This document shows, piece by piece, positions 2 through 62,666 of a DNA stretch of 64,000 bases. Position 1 is the first letter of the stretch. Each line of letters begins with the position of its first letter. The notes beneath the pieces were generated by a model, which was not told where the DNA came from, made no database searches, and was given only the letters and a program-made list of their open reading frames with translations. This stretch comes from Bilabrum cf. latius (lineage: Eukaryota). The DNA lies in assembly GCA_965178125.1 (NCBI GenBank), contig OZ237766.1, forward strand, positions 62,001 to 126,000. The letters are read 5' to 3'. The position numbers and the translations under genes are program-made.

Positions 2-2818
2 GAGACGGGGGAACTGCGTGTGGGCGAGGAAGAAGGAAAGCAGTCCGTGGAGGAAGCCGGGTCACTCGCTCGATTGGCGAGCGAGGGGGGGAGGACGGGT
101 GCGCTGCTGGGCTGGTTTGCGGAGGCAGGTCGCGATGCAATCGGCGCGGGGGCTGGCAGCAGGTAGGCTGTGGCAAGGGAGGCATGGGAGCGGGCGGCGG
201 GTTTGCCCACCTCGGTTGGCGCTCGAATGCATGCGGTGCTGCGGGCTATCTCGATGGCGTGGCAAGATGGCGACGATGGAGACACGTGTTCCCTGGGTCA
301 GGGCTAGTGGCAGGAGGACGTGCTGCGGGGGGTCTGCTTCCACGTCGGTGCAGCGCGCTCTAGTGCTATCAGTGCAGGCATCGGGGCCCTGCGCGCTGCG
401 GTGGAGTAGTGTCTGAATGGACTGGCAGGGGCAGGGGCAGGGGCAGAAGTCGACGGTGACTCGGCTCGTGCGACGATAGAGGCCATGCAGGGGGTGTTGG
501 GGGCTAGTGAGGACATACAGGGGAGACCTGGGCACACAGCGACAGCCGTATCTGCAGTGCTCGGCGAGGCCGTGGGGCGAGAGGCGGGGCGGGCGCTGGC
601 TGTGCTGCAGCGCGCGAGTGTGGGAGCAGGTGCGGCTGATGCGGGTAGCCAAATGGTGAGTGAACTGCAGTGTGATGCTGCCGCTCGAGCAGAAGAGGTC
701 CTGGAGGCTGCCCTGGCGGAATGGAAGGCGGCTGGTGCTGCTGCTAGGCAGCCCTCGGGTGCATCGCATGGTGGTGCAGGCCAAGGTCGGTCCAGGCAGC
801 GCCGCAGCCGAGTTCCTGGGGGTGTGTCGGTGGCGGTGCTTGGGGAAGCCGCCAGTGCCGCTTCCGGGGCTAGAGAGCAAGGGGCTAGAGAGCAAGGGGC
901 TAGAGAGCAAGGGGCTAGAGAGCAAGGGGCTGGAGAGCAAGGGGCTGGAGAGCAAGGGGCTGGAGGCACGGTTGCTCGCACTGGGTGCCCGGCTGGAGGC
1001 ACGGTTGCTCGCACTGGGGGCCCGGCGAAGGAGGACGCGGGGGGCGAAGGTGGTGGGGGGTAGTAGGAGCAGCGAGACGAGGAGGAGGGGGAGTAGGAAG
1101 AGGACTGGATGGATGCGGCGGAGAGGGAGGCTGCCAGCGGGGCAGGTGCATCGCACGATGGCACAGAGCTGAAGATCCTACCGCTTGCTCGCAGGGCGGC
1201 GCTGGTCTCATCCGGGCTTGCCCGCGCGAATGCAGTGGTCGGGGTGCTTGGGCCGTTCTGCGCGTGCCTCGGGCATGGCGGGGGTCACAGAGATGGCACT
1301 GGCCCTGATGGTGCTGCTGCTCCTGGTGGGTCTGTAGGCGCTTGGTTACGGGCTGGGGTCGAGGAAAGCGAGGCAGGACCTGCCAAGGGGCCTCTGTTCT
1401 CTGTAGACAGGGGAAGCGCCGAAGGATTCCGCCGGTGGTGGCCTGTCCTGAGGGTGGGTGCCGTCGGGGGCCGCATGCGCGAAGAGGTAGAGGACGAGGC
1501 AGGTGGCTACGGAACTCTTCCGATGGTGCTAGCGCAGCTCGAGGCAGGCCAGCGCCTAGGGGCCCGGACAGGGGGCGAAGGTGAGGCAGCCAGGCGCCTC
1601 ATTGGTGGGGACAGGACTGGTCCCGGGGGCGAGGGAGGGTCATAGGAGGGGGCACAGGGGGGGGCTGGGAATGCACAGCTTCAGCTGCCCTCCATGGAGC
1701 AGCTGTCGGTCTGGGTCGCACAGGGGGCGGTGTCCCATGTGACGAGTGCGCATTCGTCACATGAAGATGCTCCGCCTGCGAGTATCCGGGAGCAGGTCAA
1801 GGTGGGAGGCAGGCTGGCGGTGAGCGAGCTGGCGGCGGCGCTGGGGGGCCCGCTGCTGGACGCGGCTTGTGCCTTGGACTTGGACTTGACCCGGGTGACG
1901 AGTGGGGGCTCACAGCAAAGCGTGGCATCTGCTGCGCTGGGACAGGCGCTGGTGGACGTGGCGGGTTGGCTGGAGCCCGTCGCGAGCGGGCGGCAGCTGG
2001 CGGAGCTGGAGTCAGCCCTCGAGGCTGGGGGGGTGCTGGGTGCGCGGGGGCTGCGGTCTGCGCTGCAATGCAGTGCCATTGCGGGCAAGCAGTCCCATGT
2101 GACCTTGCGTGGAGTTGTGAGCACCACAGTGCGATGCATTCTGCGGGCAGGCGAAATAACTTCGGGAAACACCAGGGATGGTGATGGAATTGTTGATGGG
2201 GGTGAGGCAGAGGCAGAGGCGGGCTTGCTGGAGGTGCTGCTGGGCGGGGCCACTGGGGGGCAGGGGCATGGGTCTGTGTCGCTGTCCAAGGGGTTGCTGG
2301 GGTTTGCCTGCAGGGCGGCGGGGGCGGGGCTGCTGCTGGCGGCGTGCACTGGTGTGATGAGTGCCGGCAAAGACCCGGTCGGGAGGAGCGAGCGACTGGC
2401 CAGCGCCGGACGGCAGGTCTGGGCTGACGGGTGCGGGCTGTGCAGCTCGATCCGTGCCCTTGGACTCGAGGGAGACAGTGGTCCGGCGGGTGTGACGAGT
2501 GCTATCGGTGCTCTGCTGGTAGGGGCTCCTGAGGATGTGCTGGCCCTCGCGCGGGGCGGCTCGGGAGGGGCAGGGGCAGGGGCTGAGGGAGGGGCGGAGG
2601 CAGGGGCAGATGATGTCAGCAGTCCAGGGGGTCCGGGTGTGGTATCTAATGGTGACGGTAGCAGCGACCGGGCGGCAGTGTGGGAGGTGCTGGCCCGAGC
2701 TGCACGATGCAGGAGCATAGAGGAGACAATGGGCTGTCTCCGTGGGGCCGGTGCGGGGCATTCCGCGGTGCAGGCGATGGCTAGACTCGCCGCCAGTGTG
2801 CGGGGTATCCTGCTTTGA
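2..2818 (+). CDS. Hypothetical Ala/Gly-rich protein, 5'-partial (UAG read as sense)
   Basis: Track ORFs 485-1063, 1109-1645 and 1694-2818 share one frame. The frame is open from position 2 except for TAGs at 164, 305, 407, 1061, 1064, 1094 and 1643, and it ends at TGA 2816-2818. No domain recognised. Confidence 0.65.
866..1018 (+). repeat. Coding minisatellite: ~6 x 15 bp (GGGGCTRGAGAGCAA; GAREQ/GAGEQ) followed by a ~33-bp duplication
   Basis: Tandem units read directly from the sequence; unit lengths are multiples of 3. Confidence 0.9.
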
Positions 2819-3036
2819 ATGAAATACTTGGTGTTGCGACATACTTTGTTGTACATGCACCAGTCGGATGCGTTGTCAGACGGTTGTCTTGCTGGAGGTT
2901 CGCTTGCCGACAGGGATTCCCTTCGGGTTCGTTCGTGAAGCAGGTGCTTGAATTGCTGCTGTGTGCTTCTCAATTGCGGCGCACTGCCAGCATAGCAACT
3001 CCTTTTTATCAAACATAATATACTCACGCTTGCTTT

Positions 3037-6000
3037 ATGCTACTCATTGCGTGCATGCATATTTGGTGCTGCATACTACTGGCATTCAACGCACGAGCTG
3101 CAGTCCATCGAAGCGCGGAGCGTGATTCTACGCTTCCCCAGGCCGCTGCAGGACCACTTATTCGTTTATCTCGTAGTTTACCTACTTCGGGTCTCCCGAG
3201 CGCAGTGCTGCTCAATAATTTCCGCGTTGCTGTGAAACGCAATCTGGCACGTCGAATGATGGCCGATTTAGTCACCGGTCTACCGATTGGGAGGGTGGTC
3301 ATTACACGTTCTATTGTGTCAGATGATGTGGCGATTTCGATGGCTCAGTGGATCCATAATAGATTCCCGAAGCTGCCTGTCCACCTGCCGAGCCGCACTT
3401 TGGGTTTCGGCAACAAAGCAGAGGCTTCCATCTACAAAAAGACTGACTCGAACCTGATGTTTGTCCCAAGGCGACAACCACTAGGCAAAGAACGACAAAA
3501 GTGCTGGGGCGTATCGTTGATCCCGCCCAAGGGCGGTTCATGCGGCGGTGCCTTCTCCCTCGACGGCTCCCGCGCGTGGATGGACCTTTTGCTGGTAGAT
3601 GCACGGGCTGTGTGCGGGCCGCATGGTGAGCCAAATGGAGCAGGCACTAACCAATCTGACCCCTTCGATGACCCAGTCCCTTTCCTGCGGGGCCTAGAGG
3701 CCTCAAATGAGGCGCTCATCATGCTGCTGGACGGTGCGGATGCATGGGCCGGCAACCACAGGGGCGGCGATTGGCCAGAGGAAGAGCTGGGGTCAACAGC
3801 ACATGAGCAGTCGGTGCATCCTGGATCACGGAAGTGCTTAGATGTAGTGTATCGATGGGTGCACCGCACTGCAGCTTATCTCAAGGATGATGCAGATCAG
3901 CAGGAGGACGAGGACGACTCATAGGGTATTGTCCTGGGATCGAATCCCGGTGGAACACAATCATCCAGCTCGAGGCTTTCCTCGTCCTCGCGTAAATCAT
4001 TCCTGCTGCCACAAGTGGTGGCCTATGGTGCCGGCAGCTACTCGAACAGTGGCAGCCGTCCGCCTGCCGTGGCATACCATGTGCGCACACACGTGCTGGG
4101 GACTGGTGCATCGCATGGTGGTGCATCTGCTCAGACCCAGACCAGCGGCCCCCGCCCCACGGAGGGTTGGTTCCTCCCCGTGTCTCCTCAGGGCATGGGC
4201 GCGGCCCGCACGGCCCGCCTGGCATACTCACACTCGGATGAAGAGGAAAAGGAGAAAGGTGAGCGAGGACTCGATGAAGACTCGATTCCGCTGGTGCTGT
4301 ATGACGAGTGCATCTCCACTAAGGAAAGGCCCTGCGACCGAGGCCTCTTCGATCCACGGGTGGATTGGGCAGCGGGGGTGGGCAGCATCCGGCACCTGCC
4401 CCTGCGGCTGGACTCGGAGGGGGGGGGGAATGGGATGCGGGTGGTGGGCGGGGAGCACCCCTGGAGCAAAGCAACTGATATCGGGCAGGTGCCGCCGATG
4501 CCGTGCCTGCACCTCGGCGTGGCCCCGGGGTGGATGCATCGCATTGCAGCGGCCAGCACCGCGGGCTGCCTGGTGCTGCCGATGCGATTGGAGCCGCTCG
4601 GGCCGGGTGGCTCTGTGACACGACTGGAGGACCGGGCTCGCGTGCTAGGGCTAGGGGTGTCGGACGGGACCATGGAGCGGGGCGCCTCTCTGCTGGCCCA
4701 GGCGCCTGGAGTGCCCCTGCTGCACGCGGTGCGGGCCCTGCAGGGGCAGGACCACCTCGCTCTCGTGAGCGCGGGGGAGCGGTTCCTAGAGTCCACCGGT
4801 GGAGTGTCACGAGTGACCACCGCCACCCAGGGGCCTGGCGGGGGCTCGGGAAATGGGATCCAGGAACGGTTGGTCTCTCGTGAGTTGGAGGGGCTGGGCC
4901 AGCTGGCAACCGTTGCCATGGTGCGAGCAGCCACCGCGGATCCTGCCCTGCAGCGGCTCCTCACCCCAATGGTGCCGAGGGGGGGCAAGGCCCCGGGAGC
5001 AGAGGGACAGGTGCCCGGCAAATTGGTCGCACGCGCTGAGGGGCTGGACCTGCTGTTGTCCCAGGGGTCATTTACCCCCCTCATGGGGGGCACTGCCATC
5101 GAGGCGTGGAGGGGGGGTGTAGGTCTGGGTCATTCTGCAGGTGGGTCCCTGCAGCAGGCCAGCAGGAGGGCTGCACTCCTGACCATGCAGGGGCCGCCGG
5201 CCAGTCCAGAGCGGGTGCTGGCACTGGTGCACGAGGCTATGGGAGGGGCTCATGCAGGTTACGAGGGGCCAGGGGAGAGTGTAGGTCCCTTGGACCACGA
5301 CCCTCGGCTGATGCCCAGCGCTGTGCGCCGCCTGCACCGAGACCTCATGGAGTAGCAGCACCCCCCGAGTGACGAGTGCAGCTCCAGGCGACTGCTCCTG
5401 TTCCGTTGGGCCGACGAAATGCGCACGCAGGGACTAGCAGCCATGCTGCAGCACCTGGCTGCCTCCTTGGCTCTGGCTCGAGCCCTCAACCGCACGCTGG
5501 TCGAGGTGCCCAACGCAGACGCGCCCGGGGGGTGGCCTGCTTGGGAGGCGTACAGCGGTGTGACGAGTGAATAGGGGAGTGCCGCGCCCCCTCTTGCAGA
5601 CGAGTGGTTCCGCGCCCCTCCTGAGCAATGTGGGGGCAGGCTGTTCGGGTGCTACTTTGAGCCACTGAGCAGCTGCACCATCGGATTGAGGGACGTGCCG
5701 CCCCTCGATGGTGAACAGCAACAGGGACAGGGGCAGGGACACGAAGCCGGTGGATACCCGCGGATGGATCAAACGGAGCTGATCCCCGCTCTGCCCACCG
5801 ACAACTAGTGGGTATACGGGCAGGTGCACTCGTCACAACACGACCTGCGAGCCCCGCTGTCAATCGAGGAATCCATGGCGGCGCGCGTGCGGTCCTACCT
5901 CCAGAGCGGGCGGCGGGATAGCAGGAGGGTGCTGCGCGTGGGGCTGATCCGGGACCATCGCGCGGTGATGCGACACGTGACGGCAGAGTGGACGGGGGCA

Positions 6001-6933
6001 CCCGAGTGGTGGGCGGCAGAGGCAGGCCCGGGTGGTCTGGGGCGGGGCCTGTGGTTCGCTGGGTTCTCTGCCTATCTGTGGAGGCCCCGGGCCGGGCTGC
6101 TGCTTGCTAGCGGTGCTTTCGGAGACATGGTGGGGGGCATGCGGCGGGCGGGGGCGGGGTACCTCCTGCAAGCCGAGTGCTTGCGCTCCATGTCCATGAG
6201 TGCGGCGGGGCGGGGGGGAACCCGGATTGATAGGTAGCGTGCACTTTCAGCGGAGTGCGAGCTAGCGCGAGGGCTGCATGCCACCGCAGCGAGGCACCGA
6301 CACGATGCAGGCGATGGCACCGACTACGGTACAACCGGAAATAGCCCCGGGCTAGACCCAGATCCGAGCCAAGATGCGCCCCTGCCTATTCCCCTGGGCC
6401 CCGTGTTTGCGCTGCACCTGCGGCGCGGGGACACCGCAGGTCTGTTCTACCGGGGATAGGCGGGTCTGCACGGGGTGGTGGGCCCGGCCAAGCGGCTCGT
6501 GCGGGCCGTGGGGGCCCCTTGTTCCCTGGCCGTGCTGGCCTCCGACTGGGCGCGGGCCAGGGAGATGGGGCCGGTGCACGGTGCCCCAGAGCTGGAGGTG
6601 GGCATAACGGGCGCATCTGTGGTAACATCGTAGGAGAGCGGTTTCGGGGGAACTGTGGAGCACTTGCTCGGGGAGGCATCCGGGTTCCGTCACCGGGGGA
6701 GTGCCCGGCTGCTGTCGGTCGGGGTCATCATGGACCTGCACGCGATGTCTTTCGCCACTCACCTGGCCGGGTCCTGCGTGTCGCAGCTGAGCCGACTGGC
6801 GGCGGATCTTGCCCTCGGATTCGGGCGGCTGGCGGGCAGGCCAGTGGGGTCGGATGTGCAGGAGTGCGGCATGCTGCAGCACACGTTCGCCGTGGAGCAG
6901 GGCTGGAGAGAGGATTTCCGCACGGGGCCGTAA
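3037..6933 (+). CDS. Alpha-1,6-fucosyltransferase-like (FUT8/GT23-like) glycosyltransferase; start uncertain
   Basis: One frame interrupted only by TAG (3922, 5353, 5572, 5806, 6235, 6457, 6631), ending at TAA. FUT8-like motifs occur in order: *QHPPSDECSSRRLL...LALARALNRTLV, CYFEPLSSC, PVFALHLRRGD (cf. PVIGVHVRRTD), VLASD, and VIMDLHAMSFATHLAGSCVSQLSRLA (cf. [25 protein letters not shown]). Confidence 0.75.
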
Positions 6934-7252
6934 GACACACGCGCGGATCTACTGGGCAGGCAGACTGCGTCGCATCAGCAGGTGAGGACTGCTTGCCATC
7001 ACCGGCCGGGGACGGGGGGGGCTCGCGCAGTGGCACCGTGTGACACTCCGAGTCTCGCTGACGGTCCCGGTTCAAGCAAGCAGACTACTTCCTCGGCTTC
7101 GCACCTGCAATGCCTCCGGCGAGGCTACCGACGCGATGTACATAAGTTCGTTGCAGGGCAACTCGCTGCATCCTGTCTTGACTACCTAACTCGAAAACTG
7201 AATTGCAATTTAAATCAATTTCGACCGGGCAATCCATCTGGCTTCCGAGCAA

Positions 7253-9886
7253 ATGATGGCCAATAAGCATCAGTCTAGAATATATGCAGTGCGTGCATAC
7301 AAGCGATTGTGGGGCCATGCTGCTGGTTCATGTAACGTTGTGTCGCAGCTAGCCACCAGCACGATACCTCAGTTGGATGCACGCACGAAGGGGTGCGACG
7401 ACAATGGATACCACGGATCAAGCCTTGCTAGTGACATGCATGCAGCTGCGAAACGAAGACCCTTCCGACCAGTTCTGCCATTGAACGGCTGGGCGGCACT
7501 CATCGACGAGCAGCGATCGTTGGACTTGAACAGTATACCCACTTGGACACATTGGATCAAACAAAAGCGAACTCTGGGGGGGTAGAGTGTGAGATTACCC
7601 CAACATACGCCGGTTGTCACGGCTTGCTTTGCTTTCTCCGACGTTGCTGGAGCTGGCTTTGGGCGCAATTTGGATGTAGAGCAAGCCACTGCGGCTCGCC
7701 TCTGCCATGGCGTTGCCCACGCGATTGACCCATTTGCAGCATGCGACTCCATTCGAAGCGCGCTTCAATGGCCCGTGGGTGCCCTCTTCGTCGATGCAGA
7801 GCAGACAGGGGTGTACGAGGTCGACACACCGCAAGCACCGCCGGTGGCCGAGCGAGACAGCTTTGCATATCGTGCATGCCCTACGGGCATATTCGGCCCC
7901 GGTCGCAATTTCACCCCCGAGGGCTGGGGTCTGCCCCCAGCTCCCGTGCTGAAAGACATTGCCTGTGACGAGCAGCTCTCGAGCTGCACTCCAGCAGCCG
8001 AGCAGCCGCCGCCTCCCACGGTGCGGGTGCGCGGGGCCTCATTTCACGGGGGCCCGCGCAACTGGCAGACCGTGTGGTGGTGGGCCATGCGCGGCAGCAG
8101 GGTGCTCCTGGCCTTTCTCTCGCCGGGCATGACCCGGAGCCAGAACTGCCTCAAGGAGCTGAAGGTCCTGCGGATGGCCTGGAGGCAGTGGGGCGAGGGT
8201 GAGCAGGGGGGTCGGGAGGGTGCACCGCACTGCGGGGATCCACCAGGGGGCTGGGGCACTGGTGCCCCTCCCCTGCCTATGTTCGTGTGCTCTGGCTGGG
8301 GGGGTGGCACCACCAGGGAAGGAAAGGAGAGCGGCGTGGAGAAGGAGAAGGGGGAGGAGAGCGGCGGGCTGAGACAGACAGCAGTGGGAGAGGTGCAGCG
8401 CACGATGCGGGTCATCGCACAAGCAGTGGAGTCCCGCATCCGAGCTAGAGCCAGCAGATGCGCTCGTCACACCGAGTACGGTCCTGTAGAATGGTGCGAA
8501 GCGATGCTTCCGCACTTGAAGCGAGCCTGTGGGGGCAGCTCCCGACGCGCAGCCCAAGAATTGACACCGAGTGTAGTGCATGAGACAACAAGGACAGCCC
8601 CGGGCCAAGAATTGACACCGAGTGTAGTGCATGAGACAACAAGGACAGCCCCGGGCCAAGAATTGACACCGAGTGTAGTGCATGAGACAACAAGGACAGC
8701 CCCGGGCCAAGAATCGACACCGAGTATAGGGTATGAGACAACAAGGACAGCCCCGGGCCAGTGGCAAGCGCTCGCCGAGTCTCCCCTTGTGGTCGATGCA
8801 CCGGGGAGTGGGCTGTTCCTGCACCCCAAGAGGGGGACAGACACAACCACCACCACCAGCACCAGCACCAGCACCAGCACCAGCACCAGCACCAGCACCA
8901 GCACCAGCACCAGCACCAGCACCAGCACCAGCACCAGCACCAGCACCAGCACCAGCACCAGCACCAGCACCAGCACCAGCACCAGCACCAGCACCAGCAC
9001 CAGCACCAGCACCAGCACCAGCACCAGCACCAGCACCAGCACCAGCACCAGCACGATTGATGCCCTAGTGTCGCATGCAGGTCTCCTCGGACTCGCAGTG
9101 CATCGGCTGGGTGTATGGCTGGGCGCGGGGGACAGGGGCACGTATGCTAGCGAGCTGCTTGCCGACCACCAGGCGGGCTGGGACTCGAGGGGGGAAGGTG
9201 GGAATCAATTCTATGGAACCTCGTGGGATGGAGAGGTGCATGGCATTGCCGTGCAGGAGGAAGGGCCCGCCGCTCCCCGGGACGACCTTGGTGTGCCACT
9301 GCGCAACCCGCACAGAGACACGGGTCGTTGGGTCTCTCCATGGGCCGTGCTGAGGAACAGGGCGCTGGGGAACACGGTGCGCGCGGGAGTGGCATCGAAG
9401 GGGGCAGCTGCTCTCCGGTAGTGTGCTTTGGAGCTGTGCAAGGCGCAGGAGCTGCAGGCGGGGGGCGCGCTGTGGCCCTGGGAGGGCATGCAGGCCGTTG
9501 GATGCGGGGCGCGGGGGGATGACCGGGGCACAGGCGCTTTGGCAGGGTGTGATGAGTGCCATTGCGTGTCTGACCAGTTTAGTAGTGCACTAGTGCTGGA
9601 CCCCAGGCGGGTGGATGCGGGTCTGGGTTTAGGTGGCAATGGAACTGGCCATTCGACCGCAGTCGACGGGCAAGATCGCCAGCAGCTGCACGCAGACCCG
9701 TGCCACACACCAGCGACAGTCCGACGAGAAGGCAGGCCACCTGCTCGTCCACCCGGCGACTGGAAGCCCCGGATGGAGCGGGCCATATCGCTGTGCGGGG
9801 ATCGGTTGGGGAGGGCCCCATGGGCCGGGGAACAGGACCTGCTGGACGCTTTGAGAGAGAGGGAACACAGTGCAAAGCCGAGCTGA
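7253..9886 (+). CDS. Hypothetical protein with a TIR-like motif and internal repeats; start uncertain
   Basis: Track ORFs 7253-7585, 7589-9421 and 9428-9886 are in one frame, joined by TAGs at 7583 and 9419, and end at TGA. The segment AMRGSRVLLAFLSPGMTRSQNCLKEL resembles the TIR betaC-alphaC region. Confidence 0.55.
8554..8760 (+). repeat. 4 x 51-bp coding tandem repeat (QELTPSVVHETTRTAPG)
   Basis: Three identical units and one diverged unit, contiguous, with no spacers. Confidence 0.95.
8853..9054 (+). repeat. (ACCAGC)n hexamer microsatellite encoding poly-(Thr-Ser)
   Basis: About 33 perfect units visible directly. Confidence 0.95.
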
Positions 9887-38930: not shown

Positions 38931-38963
<33 letters not shown>

Positions 38964-43864: not shown

Positions 43865-43896
<32 letters not shown>

Positions 43897-50553: not shown

Positions 50554-50648
<95 letters not shown>

Positions 50649-52219
50649 TTGGGGCAGCCTCGAGAGCACCAGCCAGGAATGCACGCGCATCGCAGTGCAG
50701 TGCGCCCAGCAGCCCGCCCACCACCCGCCGCAGACTCAGGTCCAGACGAAGCAAAGCCGGCAGTCGGGCTGCAACGTCCAGGGAGGCATCTGAGGCATCT
50801 TCGGTACTACACGCGAGTGGGTCTGGCGAGTTGAAGCACAGCGCAAGCAGCCAATCATCTTCAGGTGCAAGCCAGAGCCAAGCCGACGACAAGGACAAGG
50901 ACAAGAACAAGGACAAGGACAAGGACAAGGACAAGGACAGTGTTGAAGACACTACCGGAGGCAAAGTCAAGAGCTCAGGTTCTATCGTGGGGTCCAGACC
51001 AACAGGCCGCCGCCGGCTCCCCAAGCCGTCGTCACCGTCAGCACCGTCCTTCCCTTCGATTCCCGCGAGATCATCGGTGCGGCTTGGACTCAAAAGGAGC
51101 AGGAGCACTGGCACTGGCACGGGCACAGGCAGGAATGACGAGGCGCGCAAAGGTGCAAGGGGATCAGGAGGGAAGGAAGAAGCGGATGGGCAGGGACAGC
51201 GACAAGGACAGGGGCAGGAGCAGGGGCAGGCGGGGGGTCCTCAGTCGATCGGTGCATGTGTGGATTCTGTTGCACCAGCAACCTCGAATGCAGAGGTAAG
51301 CCCAGCAACAGAGGCAGCGGCAGAGGCACCGCCCGCCAAGAAACCCCGGCATGCACGCAGAAAGGCAGCTCAGGTAGCGATGACAACCTTGGGAGGCAAT
51401 ATGAGCGCTTCTTCTTAGCCCCAGTCTAAGCCAAGGGTGCTGGGCGAGGCATTCAGCAGCCCAAAGAGGCCCGATCGGGCACATGATGCGCCTGGTCCCA
51501 TCGATGCAAGCGTTGATAAATCCCCCGCTGTGGATCGGCTCAGCCGGCTGCTGGCTAGCCCGGGAGATGCGGACGCAGCTTCTGCCGGTGCATGGCACGG
51601 TGGTGCGCGCCGGGCCCGCCGGGTGCGTGTGCAGCGTACAAGGGTGAACCAGCAGAGCTTTGAGCTGGAGGTCTCTGCCTCATCCACCTCTTCGGGGTCT
51701 GGGTCTGCAGGTGAGTCTGGACCGGGAGGGCCAGCATAGAGCAAGTCAATAGACTAGTAGCGAGGTACTGCCTCTGGGTCTGCAGGTGGGTCTGGACCGG
51801 GAGGGCCAGCATAGAGCAAGTCAATAGACTAGTAGCGAGGTACTGCCTCTGCTGCTGCTGTTGGGGCTCATGGCGCAGTGGTGCAAGGTGACGAGTGCAG
51901 CACTGTGCCCAGCACCACCGGACACGAGCCCTCCACTGCGTCCACGCCAGGGTCTACCCGGGGGAGCAGCAGTCGAGGGAGGCAGGGGCGCACCCAGGGG
52001 AATGACCCCACCATGGGGGACTCCTCCCCCACCCGGGGTTCTGCCTCTGCCTCTGCCTCTGCCTCTGCCTCCTCCTCCTCCCCCGCGACCTCAAGCGGGG
52101 CGAGCCCCTCCCTCAAACGCCGAGTCAGACGCAATTCAAAGAGGGGCCGCCGGCTCAAGACGTACATGGATCCGCTGCGGAGGGTGCTGGGGTCACCTGG
52201 GTCTCTCGGGATCAGTGAT

Positions 52220-52251
<32 letters not shown>

Positions 52252-53365
52252 AGACGAAGAAGTGGAGGAGTAGGCAGGGGGAGTCAAGGGGACCGCGCGA
52301 GGCAGCCGGCTGCCAGTCCTCGGGAAGGCCTCCTCCCATCGATCCCATGCCAGGGGGTCGGTGGCAGTGAGCGGCGGCGGCAGTGCCCATGCTGGCCCTC
52401 TCGGGGTCAGGGCTGCCCTCAAGCCCTCCTTGTTGTGCTCCAGAGCACGGGCAGGTGTGACGAGTGCAGCGCGGCGGCGTGCGGTGGGTGTCCCCTTGAA
52501 GAAGCGGGGTAAGGGGAAGGCTAGCCGCAGCAGTGCAGTGCAGTCTCGTGGTTGGCAGGGGGGGCAGCAGTCGCACTGGGACGTAGTGTCGTCGCCAGAG
52601 CCCAAGCCAGGGCAGCAGGGTGCATCGCACGGTGATGCGAGCAGTCTGGCTGGGGTGGCCGTGGGAAGCGACGCGTTCCAGCCGAGGCACATCCTCGTGG
52701 GCCGGGGACCAGGGAACAAGGAAGGCAAGGAAGGTGATGAGCGCACGGGTGATGGACCTGGACCAGGCATCGCCAGGCGCCGCCGCCGGACAGTAATGGT
52801 CACCCCGGGTTCCCTGGGGCACACCCTGGGTGCTGTTGACCCCAAGGTGGGGTCAAGTCCTGGATGGCGGGCGGCTCGCGGCGGAAAGAAGGCTGCTTTG
52901 GGATCAGGCGTGGTGCCTGCAGGCAGAGCAGTTCCCAGGCCTCTGGCATCTGCGTCCTCGGGGTCAGCGACGGGTGTGTTCCTGAGGAAGGGCAAGCGCA
53001 AGGGCAAGCTCTCAGGAAATGTGACGAGTGCGAGCAGGAGGGGCGTGCTGAGGAAGGCAGGGGCCCAGGCAGCGGCAGTAGGTGCCATCGCTCCTGCAGG
53101 CCACCGTGTTCTTGTTGGCAGAGGCGTGTTGTCACCTGCAGGCAGGGCGAGCACTCCATCGAGGGACCGCAGCAGGGGAGGCAACCTGGCAGGGGGGGAG
53201 TGGTCACCGGGTGATGAAGTAGTGACAGGAAAGGTGGAGAAGCTGAGTGCTACTAGATCTAGGGTGCAGCGGACGGACAAGAGCAACAGCAACGCGGCCC
53301 GGCGGTCTTCGTCGGGGCAGAGAGGGGCTATCCTGCCCAGATCAAGCAGGCGGAAAGCACACTAA
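42134..53365 (+). CDS. Giant (~3,740 aa) low-complexity protein with one C2H2/U1-type zinc finger
   Basis: Eight track ORFs (42323, 43958, 46145, 50096, 50435, 51437, 51878, 52361) lie in one frame. The gaps I read contain only TAG (about 18 in total). ATG at 42134, TAA at 53363-53365. Zinc finger CEVCGETYAGGALAEHIKSRVH at about 46466-46531. Confidence 0.7.
50210..50319 (+). repeat. (GGTGCT)n microsatellite, poly-(Gly-Ala)
   Basis: Visible directly. Confidence 0.95.
50555..50647 (+). repeat. (GCTCCT)n microsatellite, poly-(Ala-Pro)
   Basis: Visible directly. Confidence 0.95.
51698..51850 (+). repeat. 75-bp near-perfect tandem duplication (2 copies), each copy carrying 3 in-frame TAG codons
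   Basis: Units start at 51698 and 51773 and differ by one base (GAG/GGG). Confidence 0.9.
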
Positions 53366-53707: not shown

Positions 53708-56700
53708 TCAAAATCTACCATCCCCACCAACTCCGGTGCTACCACCCCCCGTGCTGCCCCCCACAAGGGGGAGGGACCCCCGCCTGGGCCCCTCCTCGCT
53801 CGCCCCTACCCCTCGAAGCACCGCCTCACGCTGCACCTGCGCAGGAGACATGGGCTTCCTCCTCCTCTCCCTCTTCTTCTCGTGGCTGCCTGCGGACCCC
53901 GGCTCCATTTCTTGCCCCTGCCCATGCCCCTGTCCCCCCAGCTGCAATCCGCTCATCTAATGCAGTCCGCTCATCGAGGCCGCATCCCGCCGGGGAGGAG
54001 GCCTAGGCCGGGGTGTGAAAGGCACGCCCCCACCCCCACCCCCATCCTCGTCCCTATCCTAGACATGCAGCTGGTCAGACAGGGCCCGTCTCCCCGCCCT
54101 GGGGGGCTACATTCTGGCTCCGGACGCATTCAAGGGGGGGTCTGCCTGCGGGGCCGAAAGGCCGCGCAAGGATGCGGGTGACGAGTCTTTCTCCTTCACG
54201 GCATGCTTCCTGTTTCCTCCAACTTCCTCTTCACCTTTCCACTCCTGCTCTTTTTCCCGTTGCTGCTCCACTTCCCCTTCGCCTTTATCTTCATCTTCCC
54301 CATCGTGCTGGGCTTCCTGGGCGCGCTGTGCAACGACTCGGGCCGGGCCCTGTGTGATGTGTGACGAGTGAGCGCGCTTGTCGGCCGCCCGAATCGCCTC
54401 CCAGCCCGGCACGTCCTGCTGCCCTTGCCTCTGCCTCTGCCTCGTCCCATCATGGCCCCCTGCCTCATCTGGCCCAAGCGCAAGCACACCCGGTGCATCC
54501 CCGAGCGCCAGTTCCGGTCTAGACGACCGGCTGACGATGCTGCGGGCCACTGACCCCGCCCTACCCCCGCCAAGGAACAAACCCCTGGGGGGTGCCTCGG
54601 CTGATGAAGGTTCGCTGGGGTGCACCGAACCACCGGGCCGGTGGCCACCACGGCTCGATGATGCCTGCACCCCCGCCGTGCACTGCCCCTGCCGCTACAA
54701 CGGATCACTCGTCACACCACTCGTACCCGTCGCCACAATGTTGCCGCCAATAGTAGCAGCAGCTGCCGTAGCACCAGCACCAGCACCGGCACGAGAGGTG
54801 GCAGTGGTCCCGCCGGCCAGCAGCACCTCGTCCACTAGTGGATTTGCGACCGAGCCCACCCCACTGAGGAAGGATCCGGAGTCGAAATCACCCGTGTTCC
54901 CTCCTACATCTTCGTCCTAGATTCCGGCGGGCTATGGCAACCCCCTGCCCCTGTCCCTGTCTGTAGACCGGAAGAACCTCCCACCACCGGAGCGGCTGCC
55001 CTTGCCTTGCAGCTCAGTGTGCCGTACATGTCCCGATTTATCTATCCCCTAGGGCTGGTTCCTTTTTCTATCAATCACCGTCCTCATGTCCCCCCGTGGT
55101 GCCCCCCAATATCCTGGGGGGCTCCACCTCGTCCCCACCGCCCGGTCTCCACGGACTGGGGCTGTGGACGGGCGCGATGTGCTGCGGTCGCTTTCGAGGC
55201 CTCTGCCGCGCGTAGTGGGCCGCACTGCAGTGCCGTGCGACTGCCCTCTCCAACCCCCACCCAATCGCGAAGCCTGTTCCTGCCCATCGTACACAGAAAT
55301 GTGCTTCTTGGGCTGGTGGTACTGCTGCTGCTCGTGCTCCGGCTTTAGCTCCGGCTGGTGCTCTTGCTTGGCACCTACCACGGTTGGCAGCGCGATCCTG
55401 ACTGCTTCATCCCGCATTTGCTTCTCACTCTCACTCGCAAGTCGCGCCGAAGCAGGCCGTCCCCTGCCTTTCTTTCTGCCTGCTGTGCCACCATCCCCCC
55501 AGCCCCTCGCACGCAGCGAGATACCATACTTGGCTCGGGCCCCTGTCGTCGTCACACCTCCTCGCCCGACTGGCATGTCTCTGCCGCTAGTCGACACTCC
55601 ATCAGGCATGTCTCGGTATCCTACGCCTCCGTGCGGGTGCGCGCCACTTTCAGTGTGACGAGTGCTGCATCTAGGCCTGCTGCCACCCGCGCCCCTCTTC
55701 TCCACATCGCCCCAGATCAGGCCACGCAGCCGACGGAGCAGGGGATACTCGTCACACCGAGGCACCCACCCGGGAGCTGGTGGCCCTGCATACATACCCA
55801 CCACTGGCGATGCATGGCTCCCTCCCTCGTCCTATCCCCCGTGTTCGTCCTCCTCCTCCTCCTCCTCATGTTCCCTGTCTCGCCCCTTCGCACCCGCAAG
55901 AGCTTCCTGCATTCGCCTCGCCTGTTCCCTGCCAACGCGCTCCCCTGCAGACTCCTTAATCGTCACACCACTCAGAGGAACACGGGGCAAGCCTGCACGT
56001 TTCCCACCCGCACCCGCGTGCGATGCACTAGCTCCACCCGCGTCGGAGACCTCCCTCTCCCTCGCCCTGGATGTGGCTGTGGCAGTCTTCGGGAGCCTTC
56101 CGCCCGCCTGCTGCAGCTGCCTACGCAGCTGTTTCGCACCCTATCTGACCCCTGTAGCTGCACGCATGGCCCCCTGCACCCCCTGCAGCAGCACCGCAGT
56201 GCGATGACCCTGCCCCCCCCCGCCATCGCCCCCCCCGCGCCCATGCTCTGCCACCGCTGCCCGCCCTCGCTTCTCTATCGGATCCAGTGCCTCCAAAGCA
56301 TCGTCACTCGTTACAGTGGCCAAGTCAGCGTGCTACCGAGCATGCACCACCATGCCCTGCACCTCAAGCGCAGCCGCCAGCTGCAGATGAGACGCGCCCA
56401 CGTCCACACGTACAGCAGCACGCGCGATGCCCAGATCATCCATACCGTCCTAGTTGATACTGCTGCTGCTGCTACTGGCAGCGGCCCCAGTACCTCGACT
56501 ACCCCTGATACCCCCCTGTACCAAGTGCCGCTGACGGGCGCACGCGCAGGCCAGAGACCCCTGCGCGGCGAGCACGGCTGCGGAACCGAGGCGCCGCGCA
56601 TCCTGCGACTCGGTTCCGCTCGCTGCGCCACTAGCCCTGCCACGATGCTGGGGCAAACCGTGCCTCCCACTCGTCACACGGGCGCGCTTCAGTGCACCGG

Positions 56701-57499
56701 CTGCGTCTCGCCGCAGCGCAGCCGCCTGGTGCGCCGCCCCACTTATGGCTCCGAGTACGCGCCAGCCCGCACGGGCCGCCGCCTCGGACCCCCGGGCCGC
56801 TCCCTCGAGACCGGGGGTCATCCCCGATAGAATGCGCGGCGCCGGTTCCGCACCCGGGCTGGACGCCTCTCCGACGGCCTCCGCGCAGTCGAGCAGTTGA
56901 GCGAGCAGCGCCCAGGCGGAAGCACTTGCTCGGGGGGCGCGGACCCCCCTCGGGGGCGGGCGGGCGCCGTCTGCCGGAGTGTGTCCCCGCGCCGACCGTG
57001 CGGCGTTCTTCTGTTTCTCGACTGCGAGCATGACGGCGTTTCGCTAGTGGGCCGCCCACGCGCTCGCCGCGGAGGCAGCCAGGTCCGCTGCTCCTTTGGC
57101 GGCGGCCACCTAGACTGGAGTGAGCACGGACTCGCCGGCTTCTGGGGATCGCTCCCCTGTAGATTCTGAAACCAGGCTGTCGCGTACCGACTGCTGGACA
57201 GCACGGCGTCCCCACTGCAGCCCTCGGCGGATCGCAGCGGCCGTGGGATCTACGTCATGTGGACCTGGCAATCCGTTTGGCTTATCGATTCCACCGAAAT
57301 TGAATTCAGTTTTGCTGCTGGACCGTGCCGAAATTGGCCGTACCTGTCTGTGCCGCGCAAGGCGTGCACCGGTGGTTCGCGAGTGAGGTCGGTTCGGTTG
57401 CGGCCCGGAACTGGAATGGCGCGATTTCGCATATGCAAGTGTTCCTGATTCAATCTGGTTTGCAATTGCATGGCATGCGGCCCGCAGCAGTCTTGACAT
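53708..57499 (-). CDS. Hypothetical low-complexity Arg/Gly/Ser-rich protein (~1,260 aa)
   Basis: Six track ORFs (57110-57499, 56450-57031, 56141-56323, 55049-55804, 54107-54670, 53708-53956) are in one frame. The five upstream ones end in TAG and the last ends in TGA. Confidence 0.6.
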
Positions 57500-57849
57500 G
57501 GAAGCATCAAAATCAGAGGGGCTCCGCGTCCCGGCCTCTTGCGATTTTGAGTCCGACCCGGCGGCACGGCGACCATCGCTCTAGCCTCGCCGTTGCAGCT
57601 CATCTGAAAGCGTAATTTCCTGCGGAAGCCATGGTATCTCTCTGTTCTCCATCTAAATGCCGTTGGGTGGCCAGATCAGCCTCCACTCCACCCAACGACA
57701 CGCGAACCACAAGAATCGAACGTTCTTCTGGTGTCCGGTTTTTTAAGGCTCGCAGCTAGATCTATTCAGCCGCCCGATGGCGGCATCGGCATCGGCCTCT
57801 CTTGCTTTGCTCGGTGGCGCTTCCATACACTGGTCGCTCTTCAATCCAC

Positions 57850-59361
57850 TCAGCTGTCCCCTCTTTCCCACGCCGCAGTCCCTCGCTTCATGACGAAGAG
57901 GAAGTACCCCATGCCCGCAGGCACATCCAGCACGTGCACCCGCGGCAACCCATTCGAGGGTGCGCCCTGCGATTCTGTTTCAGCAGACGCGCTAGTTGTG
58001 CAGCTGCCGCTGCTCTAGGGTTCGCACACCCAGCCACCGTCCACCTCAGCACACCCAGACCCAGACCAGTCCAGCTCGACCGACATTGGAATCGACTGAC
58101 CACCTGTCGATTGTCCCTCTGCTGTGCCCTCACCTGCACCCGCACCTGCATCTTCACCTTCCCCTTCATCGGTATATGCACCTGTTTCTGTATTTCCGCT
58201 AGCCTTCGTAATTGCATCGCTGTCAGCATCTTCCCCCCCAGAATCACCCGCACCTGCCCCCTGATCTGCTCCCCCCGTTGCATCTTCCTTCTCTTCAACA
58301 GCCTCCTGCTCTTCCTCATCCGCCTGCATCGCATCTGCAGCTCCGGCGAGAGCAGCCAGAGGCCCGAGCGAGTCTTCATCTTCACTATCGGTGCTATCGA
58401 CTTCCCCCCCCTCGTACCCCGCACCGTCCACATCCTCACCTGCCGATCCCCCAGCAACACCCCCCGCCGCGGGGTCATACCCCTGAAGAAACGGTTTCCG
58501 AAAATGCGGTTGCGCAAAGGAGACCTGCAGGTAGAGTCCCCCCGGCCGGAGGACCCTCTTGCTCTCCTCCATGGCCCGCCAGCCCACCTCCAGGAGGTGC
58601 CTAGGAGGAGCCCAAGCGTCCCCCCCCCCTGCCAGCAGTGCGTCCATCATGGCCTTGTCCAGGATGGCGTCGAAGCTGCCGGCTGCATATGGGAGAGCTA
58701 GAGCGTCTGCCTGTTCAATGACAAGGCCACACGTGCACTATGTCCTGCCCCCTGCCCCTGTGTGCCCTGCCATTTCCCCACCCCCCACAACCGCCTCTAC
58801 CAACGCACCCCTCTCCGTCTCTCCCTCCTTGGGCTCTTCCTTGCGCTCCCCTCCTAGGGATGAGGCATCTGTGCTGGCAGTGACAGCAGCACCCATGACG
58901 ATGCTCATGCCCTCCCTACCCTGCTCCTCTCCCCGGAGCACTTGCTCGAGCCTCTCCCGCATGCGCAACACGGCAGCCTCGGCGATATCTGTCGCGACAA
59001 TGTTACTGTAGCCGTCTCGGAGCATGTCCAGCGGCAGGGGGGAATTGCCCGTGCCCACGAGCAGGATGCGCGCGTCTAAAGGCAGCAGAGCCCGCAGCAT
59101 GGGCCTCAGTTTCTCGTAATTTGCGAGCCACTCGTACTCGCTCTCGCGACGAAACCTGAAATCCCAGTACCCGGCCTCTCGATACAAAGCCACTTTCGAG
59201 CTGCATGGCGTCACGCCATCGTCTTCAAGACTTGATTTGCTGGGAGCATGAAGTTCTTCGACCAGCTTGGGCCTTGTAAAGCTGCCCTGTTTCATCTTTG
59301 CGACAGGTTTCGGCACTTCAATCTCTCGCACCTCGGGCTCAGACCCCAGCGAGGCAATCAT
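57850..59361 (-). CDS. Class I SAM-dependent methyltransferase, EEF1AKMT4/METTL13-N-like
   Basis: YWDFRF...YEW, ILLVGTGNSPL, TDIA, SFDAILDKAMMDALL, RVLRPGG.YLQVSFAQPHFR and C-terminal GYFLFVMKR. TAGs at 58738 and 58015; TGA 57850-57852. Confidence 0.85.
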
Positions 59362-59778
59362 ATTTTTCGATTCGACGATAGGTTTACACTACACGAGTTA
59401 CTATCCGTCTGCTACAGCGAGATTGAATACCTCTTTAAACAGCCGGTACACGTACACTTGCGTCGCCGTGCCCCAAACAGGTGTGACACGCAAAATTTGG
59501 AAACTCCGTGCCTGAATCGCCTTCTTCTTGATGTGTGACGGGCACTAAAAATATATGAAAAGCGTATACCGCGCAAGAGGCGGCAGTATTTGCTGTGTAA
59601 AAGCCCTAAACGTGGCCAAACCTGGGGTCAGCTCCTGTCGGCGTCACGTTGGTTCGCTGCATCTCGGGTGGGGTTCGTCATGGTTCCCTGTCTGATATAA
59701 AATGGATCCGACTTCAAACTGCACCGTTCCCCTGCCAACGGACAGTTCGACGCCGGAACCTATCAGAGCGCAACAAGC

Positions 59779-62666
59779 ATGGAAGATAAAACAATAATTT
59801 AGGACTCTTTGGCATTTACGTAGTAGCTCTAGTCTAGCATTACGAAGGAAAACCGGCATGGCATTCGCATGGGTGGCTTTGACTTTGAGCCGAACGAGAC
59901 CATGTTCCATGCTCTTTGGTAGCACATGGGAGAGCAAAGGAACAGGGTTCTGGAAACTCCCACCGAAGAGTTGTAGGAGGTTGTACCTCTCGAGATGCCA
60001 GAACCGTGAGATCATGGCTTGCATGCTTGCAGGTAATTTCTGTCATTCTGCCTAATCATTTAGATTTGTCTTGTCTTAGTTCACACTACGTCGCAGGATT
60101 CGTTATGTTGTGTTGCCTGTACGATCGAGAGGTATATTTATTCCCGCTAGCAGCCCGGCTGGAGCGGCTTGGAAGGAATACGCCGCCGCCGCTGGTTCTG
60201 GCAAGCGGTCGACCGATGCGTTCTCTGCCGCTGCCAAAGCGTCCGCCGAGCTGCTTGACGAGGGCGACTCGATTCCCAGTATAGCCTCTCATGCGAGTGC
60301 CATCGCCATGCCGGTGTATGGGCAGCAAGCCGGCGCCGCAAGCGGGGCGGGCGATGGCGACGGCGACGGCGGTGGCGACGGCGGTGGGGACGGGGACGGG
60401 GACGGGGACGGCGGGCGCAAGCTGCTGGGCATGCTTTGGGGCGATATGTGCTTGTCGATGGCCGGTATGATGGAGGAGCATGGCTTGTAGATAGTACAGA
60501 GGCGGGAGGAGGAGGAGGAGGGTGAGCACGAGCGGCATGCGCACGACAATGGAGAGACGGAAGAGGCCTAGCTGTTGCTGAGCTTCTCGCACGCTGGTCC
60601 TGTCGATGGACAGGGTGCAGGGAACGAGAGCGCAGGTGCAGGCGCGTCGGAGGGCAAGGAGGCGGATGATGCAGGGCAGGCGCGTCTGGTGGGCTTAGAA
60701 TTCGTCGACAGAGAAGGTGCAGTGGTGGCGATGGTGCACCGGGACGGCCGACTTGAAGCGGTGGGCATGGGGGCCGATGGGGCCGAGGGGCAGGAGAGCA
60801 AGGGAGGGGAGGGAACGTTCTGGCAGTACGCTAAGGTGGAGTTGAAGGCGGAATCAGTGGAGGTGGAGGGTGGAGGCAGCGTGCAGAAATGGACCGTAAA
60901 GCTGCTGCTGCCCCTGGCTTGCCTTCGAGGGGCAGAGGCAGGGCATGGGCTCGGGGGCCTGACCGCTTGTTCCCTGGTGACGATGGGCGCTGTTGGGGAA
61001 CAGGGGGCGGTGGAGGTGCGCACGGCGGCTCTGGATCTGTTCGAGCCGGTGCAGGCTGTGCTAGCGAACCGCACTGAGGTGGACTAGCCGGAGTCTCCCG
61101 AGGGACTAGAGTAGGATCGGGAGCGGGCGGGTGGTGCGTTCGGTGGTTTGGAAGGAAGTGGAGCTGGAGAGGGAGACGATGAGGGCGTGCCTGACGGTGC
61201 TCGTGGGTCTGGCGCAGCACTGGATGATGGAGCCGTCGGGGAAGTAGGAGGCGAGGCCGATGCGCTTGGTATCCTGGTGGACCAAGATGACGGCATGGAC
61301 GAAGATGAGGAGGAGCAGGAGGACCGGGCCGCCGCAGCGCAGGCCGCCATGGACGCAGAGGTGAGGCGGGCGGAGGATGCCCGAGCCAGGGCACTGGAGG
61401 CGCAGGCCAGTCGGGAGGAGGAGCTCAGGGAACAAGCGGAGGGGCTCCGGGCCGAGCTTGAATTCGAGCGGGCGCGGGCGCAGGAGCTGGCGACCGCAAA
61501 CGACGCCTTTCACCGCAAGCTGAGCGCCTTTTTCGCGGAGAGGCAGAAGTCGGACTAGGGCGGGGGGGGGGGGGGGCCGGGGGGGGTCGGCGGGGGGTGG
61601 GCCTAGGGCGGCCAGCGGGGCCGGTGCTAGCAGCGGGGCGGGCGCCGGCATTTCGAACGCGGAGAGGGAGCGAAGGTACAAGGAGAGGGTGGACGAGCTG
61701 CGGGAGGTGCTCCGAGGTGCCGAGACCCTGCGTGGGTCGCATCAGGACAGGCTGCATGGCATCAACTTGGAGAAAGCCAGGAAGGAGGGTGCACTGGCAG
61801 AGGTGGAGAACAGGTTCGCGGACACGAAGAAGGAGGCGATGAGGAGGTCCAAGGCGCTGAGGACGGGCAAGGGCGTGAGCAGGGCGGAGGAGAGGAAGCT
61901 CCTCGAGGAGGAGGCGGAGGAGGTCAAGAACCTCTCCGGTTCGAGGGTGCTGCACATCCTGACCCGCATGCAGGTGGAGGCCCTGCAGGCGAAACTGGCG
62001 ACCAAGGAGACCGTGGGCGGCGGGCTGGCGCTCATTGATTTCGAGCAGCTCAGGATCGAGAACGCCACGGCGCACGAGAAGATCGAAGACAGGCAGGACG
62101 AGCTGAGGCGGCTGAGGGCCAAGACAACCGCCACTGTGCAGGTGCTGACCCACGTGAAAGAGAAGCTACAGTTCGTGCAGAGAGAGACAACCAAGTACAA
62201 GGAGGAAGCGAGGAAAGCGGAGCTGGCCGTGGGCGAGCAGAGGGCGCGGCTGGCGCGCGGCAAGCGGGTCCGTGAGCGGTCCAAGGCCGACAACGAGAAG
62301 CGAGCCATCGCCAGAGGTTTCGCACACGAGGATGCGCTGGCAGTTGATTTCGAAAAGAGGCGCGTGAAGGGCCTCGAGCTGAGCCGGGAGGTGGAGAGCA
62401 TGAAGGGGAGGTATGAGCAGCTGCGGCTGCAGGCGAGGCGAGCCAATGCAGAGGCCGAGACCGTGGTTAGAACGGCCCAGGCAGGGCTTATGGCGCTGCC
62501 TGGGCTGGATAATGACATGTCCATGTCCATGGGAGGTGGAGGCAACTCCATGGTGGGTGGCATGGCGGAAGCGAGCCTCGCTGGCTCGCTGACTTCGACC
62601 GGTGGAGGCAGGCGACCAGGGGGCTCTTCGCTCGCCCGCGCCGGGTCTAGAGCGCTCGCGCATTAA
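59779..62666 (+). CDS. CCDC96: Cilia/flagella-associated coiled-coil protein CCDC96 (DUF4201) with a long N-terminal extension; apparent frameshift in a G-run
   Basis: GLALIDFEQLRIENATAHEKIEDRQDELRRLRAKTTATVQVLTHVKEKLQF matches the DUF4201 signature. Predicted exon 1 59779-60005 and intron 60006-60096. About 11 TAGs. The frame changes within the poly-G tract 61559-61586. TAA stop. Confidence 0.75.

Follow-up and report, generated by a model that had tools for sequence, protein, structure and literature searches.

Is UAG a stop codon in the organism whose DNA is considered here and, if not, what does it encode? The question is raised by a 64-kb stretch of contig OZ237766.1 (assembly GCA_965178125.1, deposited as Bilabrum cf. 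latius; positions 62,001 to 126,000 of the forward strand), hereafter called the window, in which an earlier reading of the letters (the original prediction) had noticed that many genes carry in-frame TAGs. The window is eukaryotic nuclear DNA with a GC content of 64% (58–72% by 4-kb slice). Our analysis supports UAG as a sense codon, with UAA and UGA as terminators, and this code table, as used by the genes of the window, is the established part of the case. Glutamine is the best-supported meaning of UAG, and it is highly probable that UAG is read as glutamine across the nuclear genes of this organism, leaving only UGA and UAA as terminators. The evidence comes from the window itself and from one 3.9-kb contig of a relative, L001.

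The 19 genes analysed correspond to 20 stop-to-stop frames, the CCDC113/CCDC96 gene being split into two frames at a run of 15 G residues (G15). These frames hold 104 in-frame TAGs, 93 of them downstream of the first ATG, and end in TGA (13 frames) or TAA (seven frames). At least one in-frame TAG is found in 16 of the 19 genes, the exceptions being the RNase PH gene, the 6-phosphogluconate dehydrogenase (6PGD) gene and a beta-lactamase exon. These figures come close to those of the original prediction (about 17 of 21 genes, more than 80 TAGs, 14 TGA and seven TAA ends), and the TAGs it named are in frame where it had placed them, i.e. in the Rieske reductase (21244, 22252), JmjC (39472), pectinacetylesterase (PAE), methyltransferase (58740 by our count) and 2OG oxygenase genes, plus five in ANAPC2; for the minus-strand PAE it had given low coordinates, and our recount places these TAGs at 36893, 36869 and 36485. 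The single poly-G frameshift that it reported is also present (G15 run, 61562–61576). Pfam domains were matched for ABC-F3, Rieske plus Pyr_redox_2 (AIF-like), PAE (E = 6.6e-63), F-box plus JmjC, RNase PH, a class I methyltransferase, CCDC113/CCDC96, ankyrin repeats, the metallo-beta-lactamase exon and 6PGD. TAGs fall within the PAE, Rieske/Pyr_redox_2, JmjC and methyltransferase domains, and the homologue alignments of PAE and JmjC pass through them without gaps. Reading TAG as sense extends the longest frame from 1220 amino acids (aa) under standard stops to 3789 aa; this frame spans 11.4 kb free of TAA and TGA and includes 18 TAGs. Frames of 3789, 1908, 1344 and 1304 aa appear only when TAG is read through.

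Since frames bounded by TAA and TGA cannot hold these codons, circularity was avoided by picking frames on codon usage alone, with all three stops scored as neutral and a model trained on stop-free stretches from the Pfam-supported genes. A clear frame was obtained in 78 of 213 segments of 300 nt. In these stop-blind frames TAG showed no real depletion (25 of 7722 codons in frame vs 68 of 15 444 off frame), whereas TGA was depleted about 13-fold (9 of 7722 vs 235 of 15 444) and TAA was absent (0 of 7722 vs 13 of 15 444 off frame), so that in-frame TAA and TGA are not as frequent as TAG; equal frequencies had been named beforehand as a result that would count against the reassignment. The nine in-frame TGAs were confined to seven of the 78 segments and none breaks a Pfam-supported frame: segment 53701 is the end of frame 53708–57742; segments 601, 901 and 1201 fall among repeats, and the frame that the model chose there is not the long one; segment 61501 covers the poly-G frame change; and segments 15301 and 16801 belong to a poorly resolved region at 15.3–17.6 kb.

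In a second test, codon usage was scored over the 50 codons on either side of each stop codon and the two scores were compared. Over 74 in-frame TAGs the score did not change (0.4 before, 0.0 after), whereas it fell from 8.8 to −15.8 over 11 terminal TGAs and from 0.6 to −15.5 over the seven terminal TAAs, past which 1.86 further TGA or TAA codons occur per 50 codons. This result matters for TAA because the codon is scarce in any GC-rich sequence; TAA acts as TGA does, not as TAG does. Stop-blind frames, gene ends and the collapse of the coding score after TGA and TAA thus agree with the proposal that UAG is sense while UAA and UGA remain stops.

Three other code types were tried and rejected. 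Longer frames are also gained by taking TGA as sense (47 reach 500 aa or more), but TGA is purged from the stop-blind coding frames. A code with both UAG and UAA as glutamine (UAR = Gln, NCBI table 6 type) is contradicted by the zero count of in-frame TAA among 7722 stop-blind codons and the seven TAA gene ends with loss of coding signal. A code with no dedicated stop (Condylostoma/Blastocrithidia type) is contradicted by the lack of TAA and TGA inside Pfam-supported frames.

The usage of TAG resembles that of an ordinary, minor codon. It occurs 5.2 times per 1000 codons, against 7.0 for CAA and 29.8 for CAG, and makes up 11% of TAG + CAG + CAA in the Pfam-supported genes and 13% in the other genes. 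TAGs are evenly spread along the genes (21, 16, 9, 23 and 21 by gene quintile), and the base that follows (G 0.39, C 0.29; n = 90) is similar to that after CAG. Given this even spread and CAG-like 3′ context, the pattern is not that of occasional programmed read-through. TAG 34004 stands at the head of a CCC CAG GCC CAG array, and other TAGs lie within Q/H-rich or E/Q-rich tracts. On the favoured reading TAG is a minor glutamine codon; it interchanges with CAG and CAA between orthologues, while TAA and TGA are purged from the frames and placed at gene ends.

By analogy with other reassignments (PMC5304391), UAG would be decoded by a tRNA-Gln with the anticodon CUA (or a modified relative), and eRF1 would have lost recognition of UAG while retaining that of UAA and UGA. 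The same code could arise if UAG were read by near-cognate tRNA-Gln (CUG/UUG) in the presence of an eRF1 weak on UAG, with no dedicated tRNA(CUA), a mechanism that we regard as unlikely. The lack of a CUA tRNA within the 64-kb window fits this mechanism, and for most eukaryotic reassignments the responsible tRNAs are unknown according to excerpts of PMC5304391. However, a 64-kb window with a single tRNA is uninformative on the tRNA set, near-cognate reading would be very costly for a codon almost as frequent as CAA and present up to 18 times per gene, and no special read-through context was seen 3′ of TAG.

No gene of the window requires a TAG end, nor is TAG enriched near gene ends. Homology fixes the termini of three genes. 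PAE (36315–37580, minus strand; signal-peptide-like start) ends in TGA right after the conserved C-terminal CNPTC in both the window and L001; the RNase PH gene ends in TGA at the identical residue in both; and the AIF-like gene ends in TAA within two residues of the end of its closest C-terminal homologue. An ambiguous code, in which UAG is mostly glutamine but a context-dependent terminator in some genes, as in Condylostoma or Blastocrithidia, is very unlikely. It could draw on TAG 40033 of the JmjC gene, six codons ahead of TGA, on the TAG-TAG pair 12 codons ahead of the TAA of frame 30562–32913, and on the limitation of homology-fixed C-termini to PAE, RNase PH and the AIF-like gene. Two genes with a near-end TAG are, however, no excess, since at 5.2 per 1000 the final 15 codons of 19 genes should hold approximately 1.5 TAGs; the quintile counts given above show no rise toward gene ends; TAG-TAG pairs also occur mid-gene (1061–1066, 51755–51760 and 51830–51835); and each frame closes with TGA or TAA, after which the coding signal collapses. 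Since about 1.5 near-end TAGs are expected by chance, a dual role of UAG is not indicated, but it may exist.

As to the amino acid, PAE has 52 homologues at E ≤ 0.001 (the best being 49% identical over the full length). The alignment column of the TAG at aa230 has Q in 15 of 32 homologues and E in none, and for the TAG at aa358 the corresponding figures are 23 and three. The closest PAE fragment (P0016, 244 aa, 65% identical to the window PAE) has Q at the TAG of aa222. Searching with this fragment yielded L001 (metagenome contig Ga0136560_1008585; 3938 bp; 55–59% GC), which encodes PAE, the start of a divergent F-box/JmjC gene and RNase PH. Its PAE frame contains nine in-frame TAGs, ends in TGA and is 69.5% identical to that of the window across 393 columns. 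TAG222 and TAG230 of the window PAE stand opposite CAG in L001, TAG381 and TAG404 of L001 stand opposite CAG in the window, and in both sequences a TAG follows the conserved HVAS. In RNase PH (66.9% identical between window and L001), TAG131 of L001 is opposite a window CAA. In total, 11 TAG sites could be paired between the window and L001, of which five are opposite CAG or CAA and one is opposite TAG, whereas P, M, K, Y or L stands opposite the other five. When nine TAG columns from the two species were scored against 52 homologues, glutamine reached the highest log-likelihood (Q −18.5, E −24.1, L −28.0, Ser −31.9). The sample is small and several TAG sites are uninformative; the homologue columns and the L001 orthologue sites nevertheless favour glutamine, the assignment of NCBI table 15 to which the original prediction had pointed.

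Another amino acid at UAG, with glutamate next best and tyrosine or leucine conceivable (all one base from TAG), is a highly improbable reading. For glutamate speak the PAE column at aa222 (E in 10 of 32 vs Q in five), the location of several TAGs within E-rich tracts (e.g. GAG TAG GAA GAG) and the E found at the Rieske-domain TAG column in P0175, the closest AIF-like relative; for tyrosine and leucine, one orthologue pair each (TAG vs TAT and TAG vs TTA). Besides the log-likelihoods and the scarcity of E at aa230 and aa358, it is countered by the orthologue sites, as none of the 11 TAGs is opposite GAG or GAA, and all five that are opposite CAG or CAA are flanked by conserved residues.

The comparison with L001 also shows that what lies beyond TAG is maintained. 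The ratio dN/dS 3′ of TAG was 0.18 in PAE (186 codons), 0.23 in PAE after the last TAG (55 codons) and 0.20 in RNase PH (299 codons), dS being saturated in these comparisons; such low values imply that, in both organisms, the codons beyond TAG are translated and subject to selection. The lower GC content, the saturated dS and the metagenomic origin argue for L001 being another species rather than a diverged paralogous region; TAG and CAG are interchangeable in either case. The trait is common to at least one environmental relative. The gene order of L001 partly matches that of the window. The PAE and F-box/JmjC genes are divergent and about 120 bp apart in the window (37580 to 37702), and the same divergent pair occupies positions 1–2265 of L001, while RNase PH follows PAE in L001 but JmjC in the window (36315–40056 region), i.e. 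partial synteny with rearrangement.

Contigs from sequencing runs were compared with the window over 31975–50200. Four runs of one sample (X1–X4) carry the stretch completely, and three runs from two other studies (X5–X7) were tagged ‘RNA?’ by guess. Two pieces, 35861–36037 (177 nt) and 41397–41503 (107 nt), are missing from the contigs of X5, X6 and X7 alike but retained in those of the genomic run X1. On the minus strand, which is that of the genes, the skipped pieces read GTAAGT...CAG and GTGAGA...CAG, and such precise skipping of GT-AG introns shows that X5–X7 contain spliced transcripts, in agreement with the earlier description of the genome as intron-bearing. The RNA pieces span 19 of the 27 coding TAGs of this region (three of three in PAE, six of six in gene 33384–35860, four of six in JmjC, four of nine in the giant frame and two of three in frame 30562–32913), with no differing letters. 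Splicing thus leaves the TAGs in place, and in the dominant form they are not edited, removal and editing being the two outcomes that the original prediction had put forward as refuting it: the TAGs are retained in the very contigs that lack the two introns. That the code is unchanged and the TAGs are sequencing errors, in-frame introns, sites of mRNA editing or marks of pseudogenes has a negligible probability, for although the general prior favours it and the homopolymer frameshift at 61562–61576 shows that the assembly is not free of errors, the letters are identical in four runs that come from three studies, two real introns are removed from the RNA contigs while the TAGs are kept, homologues align without gaps through TAG, the frames are interrupted always by TAG and never by TAA or TGA, purifying selection acts 3′ of TAG, and a second organism has the same pattern at different sites.

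Set against the reading of UAG as a dedicated glutamine codon are the following points. The evidence consists of nucleotide and homology data from one 64-kb window and one 3.9-kb relative. No tRNA with a CUA anticodon occurs within the 64-kb window, whose single tRNA is Ile-GAU, and the eRF1 gene is not in the window. The RNA nature of X5–X7 rests only on their spliced contigs, X5 being marked ‘probably DNA’, and these are contigs, not reads, from which rare variants are dropped, so that partial editing is possible. The PAE column at aa222 is variable (E 10, R 6 and Q 5 of 32), and the five of 11 paired sites that face P, M, K, Y or L all lie in weakly conserved stretches. Of the two TAGs in the domains of the AIF-like protein, one occupies a variable column (K 36, R 22, T 17 and E 16 of 140) and the other an insertion; these columns, drawn from 150 representatives, are uninformative on the amino acid, and in a structure (PDB) search with this protein neither TAG site aligned. 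TAG 39472 of the JmjC gene is opposite R in human JMJD6, where the alignment is gapless. Two genes also have TAGs close to their final stop, 6 codons (40033) and 12–13 codons (TAG-TAG, 32869–32874) away, where UAG may retain some function as a terminator.

Reading UAG alone as glutamine places the window in small company. According to excerpts of PMC5304391 and PMC11687900, the sources of the comparisons that follow, UAG and UAA are nearly always reassigned jointly and the UAG-only cases are a handful: Iotanema spirale (Gln) and the rhizarian exLh (Leu) (PMC5304391), Scotinosphaera (Ser) and, again with glutamine, Protocruzia tuzeti and two phyllopharyngean ciliate lineages (PMC11687900). In one ciliate UAG encodes Glu and UAA Lys (PMC11687900). 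The fornicate metamonad I. spirale has the same table as the window, with UAG as glutamine, UAA and UGA as sole stops and no sign of a dual meaning, and its code was demonstrated likewise, from in-frame UAG at glutamine positions and homology-defined termini (PMC5304391). It is, however, anaerobic, known from a transcriptome and uses UAA as its main terminator (PMC5304391), whereas the window has 64% GC, more TGA than TAA ends (13 vs 7), O2-dependent enzymes, an AIF-like protein with a presequence-like start and bicosoecids as best named matches. The UAG-only ciliates with glutamine (phyllopharyngeans, P. tuzeti) share UAA as a stop (PMC11687900); unlike them, the window has a compact ordinary nuclear layout, GT-AG introns of 107–177 nt and high GC, and there was no match to ciliates among the protein searches with PAE, ABC-F3 and 6PGD. 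With exLh and Scotinosphaera the window shares the decoupling of UAG from UAA (PMC5304391, PMC11687900), but the amino acid differs, Leu and Ser reaching log-likelihoods of only −28.0 and −31.9 against −18.5 for Gln. The UAR = Gln codes (NCBI table 6), recorded in many ciliates, hexamitin diplomonads, some ulvophytes, Streblomastix and Amoeboaphelidium (PMC11687900), have UAG as glutamine in common with the window, but UAA is sense there and not here. NCBI table 15 encodes the same assignment (TAG as Q, TAA and TGA as stops); as its original attribution to Blepharisma was an error (PMC5304391), the table serves here as a format and does not denote a lineage.

The type of code is thus already known; its origin here is probably independent, to judge from the best named matches and from the literature. 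The protein collections contain nothing close: ABC-F3 reaches 55% identity with its best match and 52% with the best named one, Bicosoecida sp. CB-2014. For 6PGD two matches reach 89%, and among the named ones Cafeteria roenbergensis ranks first (71%). In a quick, preliminary single-gene tree of 6PGD the window groups with the two 89% sequences (SH-aLRT 100), and this group is nested in a 26-row group that includes all stramenopile rows (SH-aLRT 98), apart from plants and Plasmodiophora. The matches and the tree weakly suggest a bicosoecid-like stramenopile. Against an anaerobic fornicate speak the AIF-like gene and the enzymes that depend on O2 (JmjC, 2OG oxygenase). The organism had been called a flagellate from the letters, and the CCDC113/CCDC96 gene, which fits a ciliated cell, is in keeping with this, although its placement stays weak. 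Neither PAE nor ABC-F3 of the window is present as a full-length protein in a collection of 5.8 billion proteins. A literature search, whose coverage left most subscription journals and supplementary tables outside, turned up no stramenopile and no GC-rich flagellate with this kind of code; as the sequencing runs date from 2025, a description of this code may exist or be in press. Taken further, and only tentatively since the odds seem to us somewhat short of even, the window might represent the first nuclear stop-codon reassignment in a stramenopile, i.e. in a bicosoecid-like heterotrophic flagellate, of an origin independent of Iotanema and the ciliates, common to a small environmental clade that includes L001, and having arisen at 64% GC, where loss of UAG by AT-pressure cannot apply.

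UAG-only cases bear on how eRF1 discriminates between UAG and UAA. An apparently independent one would add a data point from a GC-rich, aerobic, intron-bearing organism with DNA and RNA data, and would allow a test of whether particular eRF1 changes recur. It would also test the need for codon loss under mutation pressure, TGA and not TAA being the main stop. In practice, standard gene callers split most of the genes of this organism, so that annotation and phylogenomics require table 15.

The genes of the window are arranged on both strands. On the plus strand the first half begins with three long frames: a 938-aa frame with an open 5′ end (2–2818; no Pfam match; seven TAGs at 164, 305, 407, 1061, 1064, 1094 and 1643; TGA end), the 1304-aa frame (3019–6933; no Pfam match; seven TAGs; TAA end) and an 890-aa frame with a coding hexamer and 51-nt repeats (7214–9886; two TAGs; TGA end). 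They are followed by an ABC-F3/GCN20-like gene (11801–15127; TGA end), whose one TAG (11918) is near the N-terminus, the conserved part having none; a 2OG-Fe(II) oxygenase-like gene (18484–20280; TAGs 19141, 19153 and 19423; TAA end), with a Pfam score of 22.0 bits, below the 23-bit cut-off; and the Rieske plus Pyr_redox_2 (AIF-like) gene (20887–22974; TAA end), in which TAGs 20926 and 20944 lie in the putative presequence, ahead of 21244 and 22252. The minus strand carries an ANAPC2-like gene (23533–29112; TAGs 28974, 28845, 26985, 25668 and 24795; TGA end), which scores 25.9 bits in Pfam, below the 27-bit cut-off, and just upstream of it the tRNA-Ile(GAU) (29173–29245, minus strand; Rfam 66.1 bits). 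Nuclear eukaryotic tRNA-Ile genes usually carry AAU or UAU, and the G34 form is unusual. A loosened ARAGORN run of the window listed 39 ‘genes’, which were discarded as noise, 38 of them having implausible introns of 34–2649 nt. An ankyrin-repeat gene (29380–30552, minus; one TAG; TAA end) and the 783-aa frame (30562–32913, plus; no Pfam match), with seven TAGs including the pair at 32869–32874, complete this part.

The centre of the window holds a Q/H/A-rich gene covered by RNA contigs (33384–35860, minus; TGA end), with TAGs at 35210, 35027, 34937, 34004 (heading a (CAG GCC)n run), 33917 and 33665, the PAE gene described above, the F-box plus JmjC (JMJD6-like) gene (37702–40056, plus; TAGs 37741, 37786, 37858, 38911, 39472 and 40033; TGA end) and the RNase PH-domain gene (40134–41657, minus; TGA end), whose frame, devoid of TAG, passes through the intron at 41397–41503. 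One 4438-nt contig of X7 covers the PAE gene, the intron 35861–36037 and gene 33384–35860 (window 32984–37598, minus), and represents either overlapping or read-through transcripts. Being located past the PAE stop and ahead of the first ATG of gene 33384–35860, this intron belongs to a 5′ leader.

The remaining third is dominated by the giant low-complexity 3789-aa frame (41996–53365, plus; no Pfam match; 18 TAGs; TAA end). It is rich in Ala, Gly, Ser and Arg, contains coding hexamer arrays (e.g. 50207–50319 and 50554–50648) and a 75-nt tandem duplication with three TAGs per copy (51698–51851), and parts of it are covered by RNA contigs. Next come the 1344-aa frame (53708–57742, minus; no Pfam match; 15 TAGs; TGA end) and the class I methyltransferase gene (57850–59397, minus; TAGs 58740 and 58017, and 59391 before the first ATG; TGA end). 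The CCDC113/CCDC96-like gene (60056–62666, plus; TAA end) consists of frames 60056–62038 and 61524–62666, which switch at the G15 run, with TAGs at 60488, 60569, 61085, 61112 and 61556 in the upstream frame; the frame change could be genuine or could reflect an error in homopolymer length. The 6PGD gene (62890–63999, minus; 369 codons, zero TAG; TGA end) runs past the end of the window. In the poorly resolved region, a metallo-beta-lactamase frame (16810–17529, minus) and a 238-aa frame (15309–16025, minus) have a strong coding score with in-frame TGA in the stop-blind test, and 15309–17589 is probably a multi-exon gene.

The 10-mer GTGACGAGTG occurs in 32 exact copies in the window, against 0.11 expected, and in just 16 one-mismatch variants (48 sites in all vs 4.2 expected). 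Its sites include 1739, 5369, 36808–36817, 43958, 47399 and 53021, and it is often preceded by GGT. Twenty-four of the 32 copies share the strand of the gene around them; eight lie on the opposite strand. The 10-mer is translated as V-T-S or D-E, and in PAE it encodes GDEW, aligned with homologues; it is found at the same PAE site in L001 (L001 1754). Most copies lie within low-complexity genes, and none in the ABC-F3, AIF-like, 2OG, 6PGD, RNase PH or methyltransferase genes. A role as splice signal or introner was rejected, the 10-mer being retained in RNA contigs and encoding aligned residues. Perfect hexamer arrays of 16–35 copies are also present within open frames (8848–9054, 31854–31971, 50207–50319 and 50554–50648) and yield protein runs such as (TS)n, (GA)n and (AP)n.

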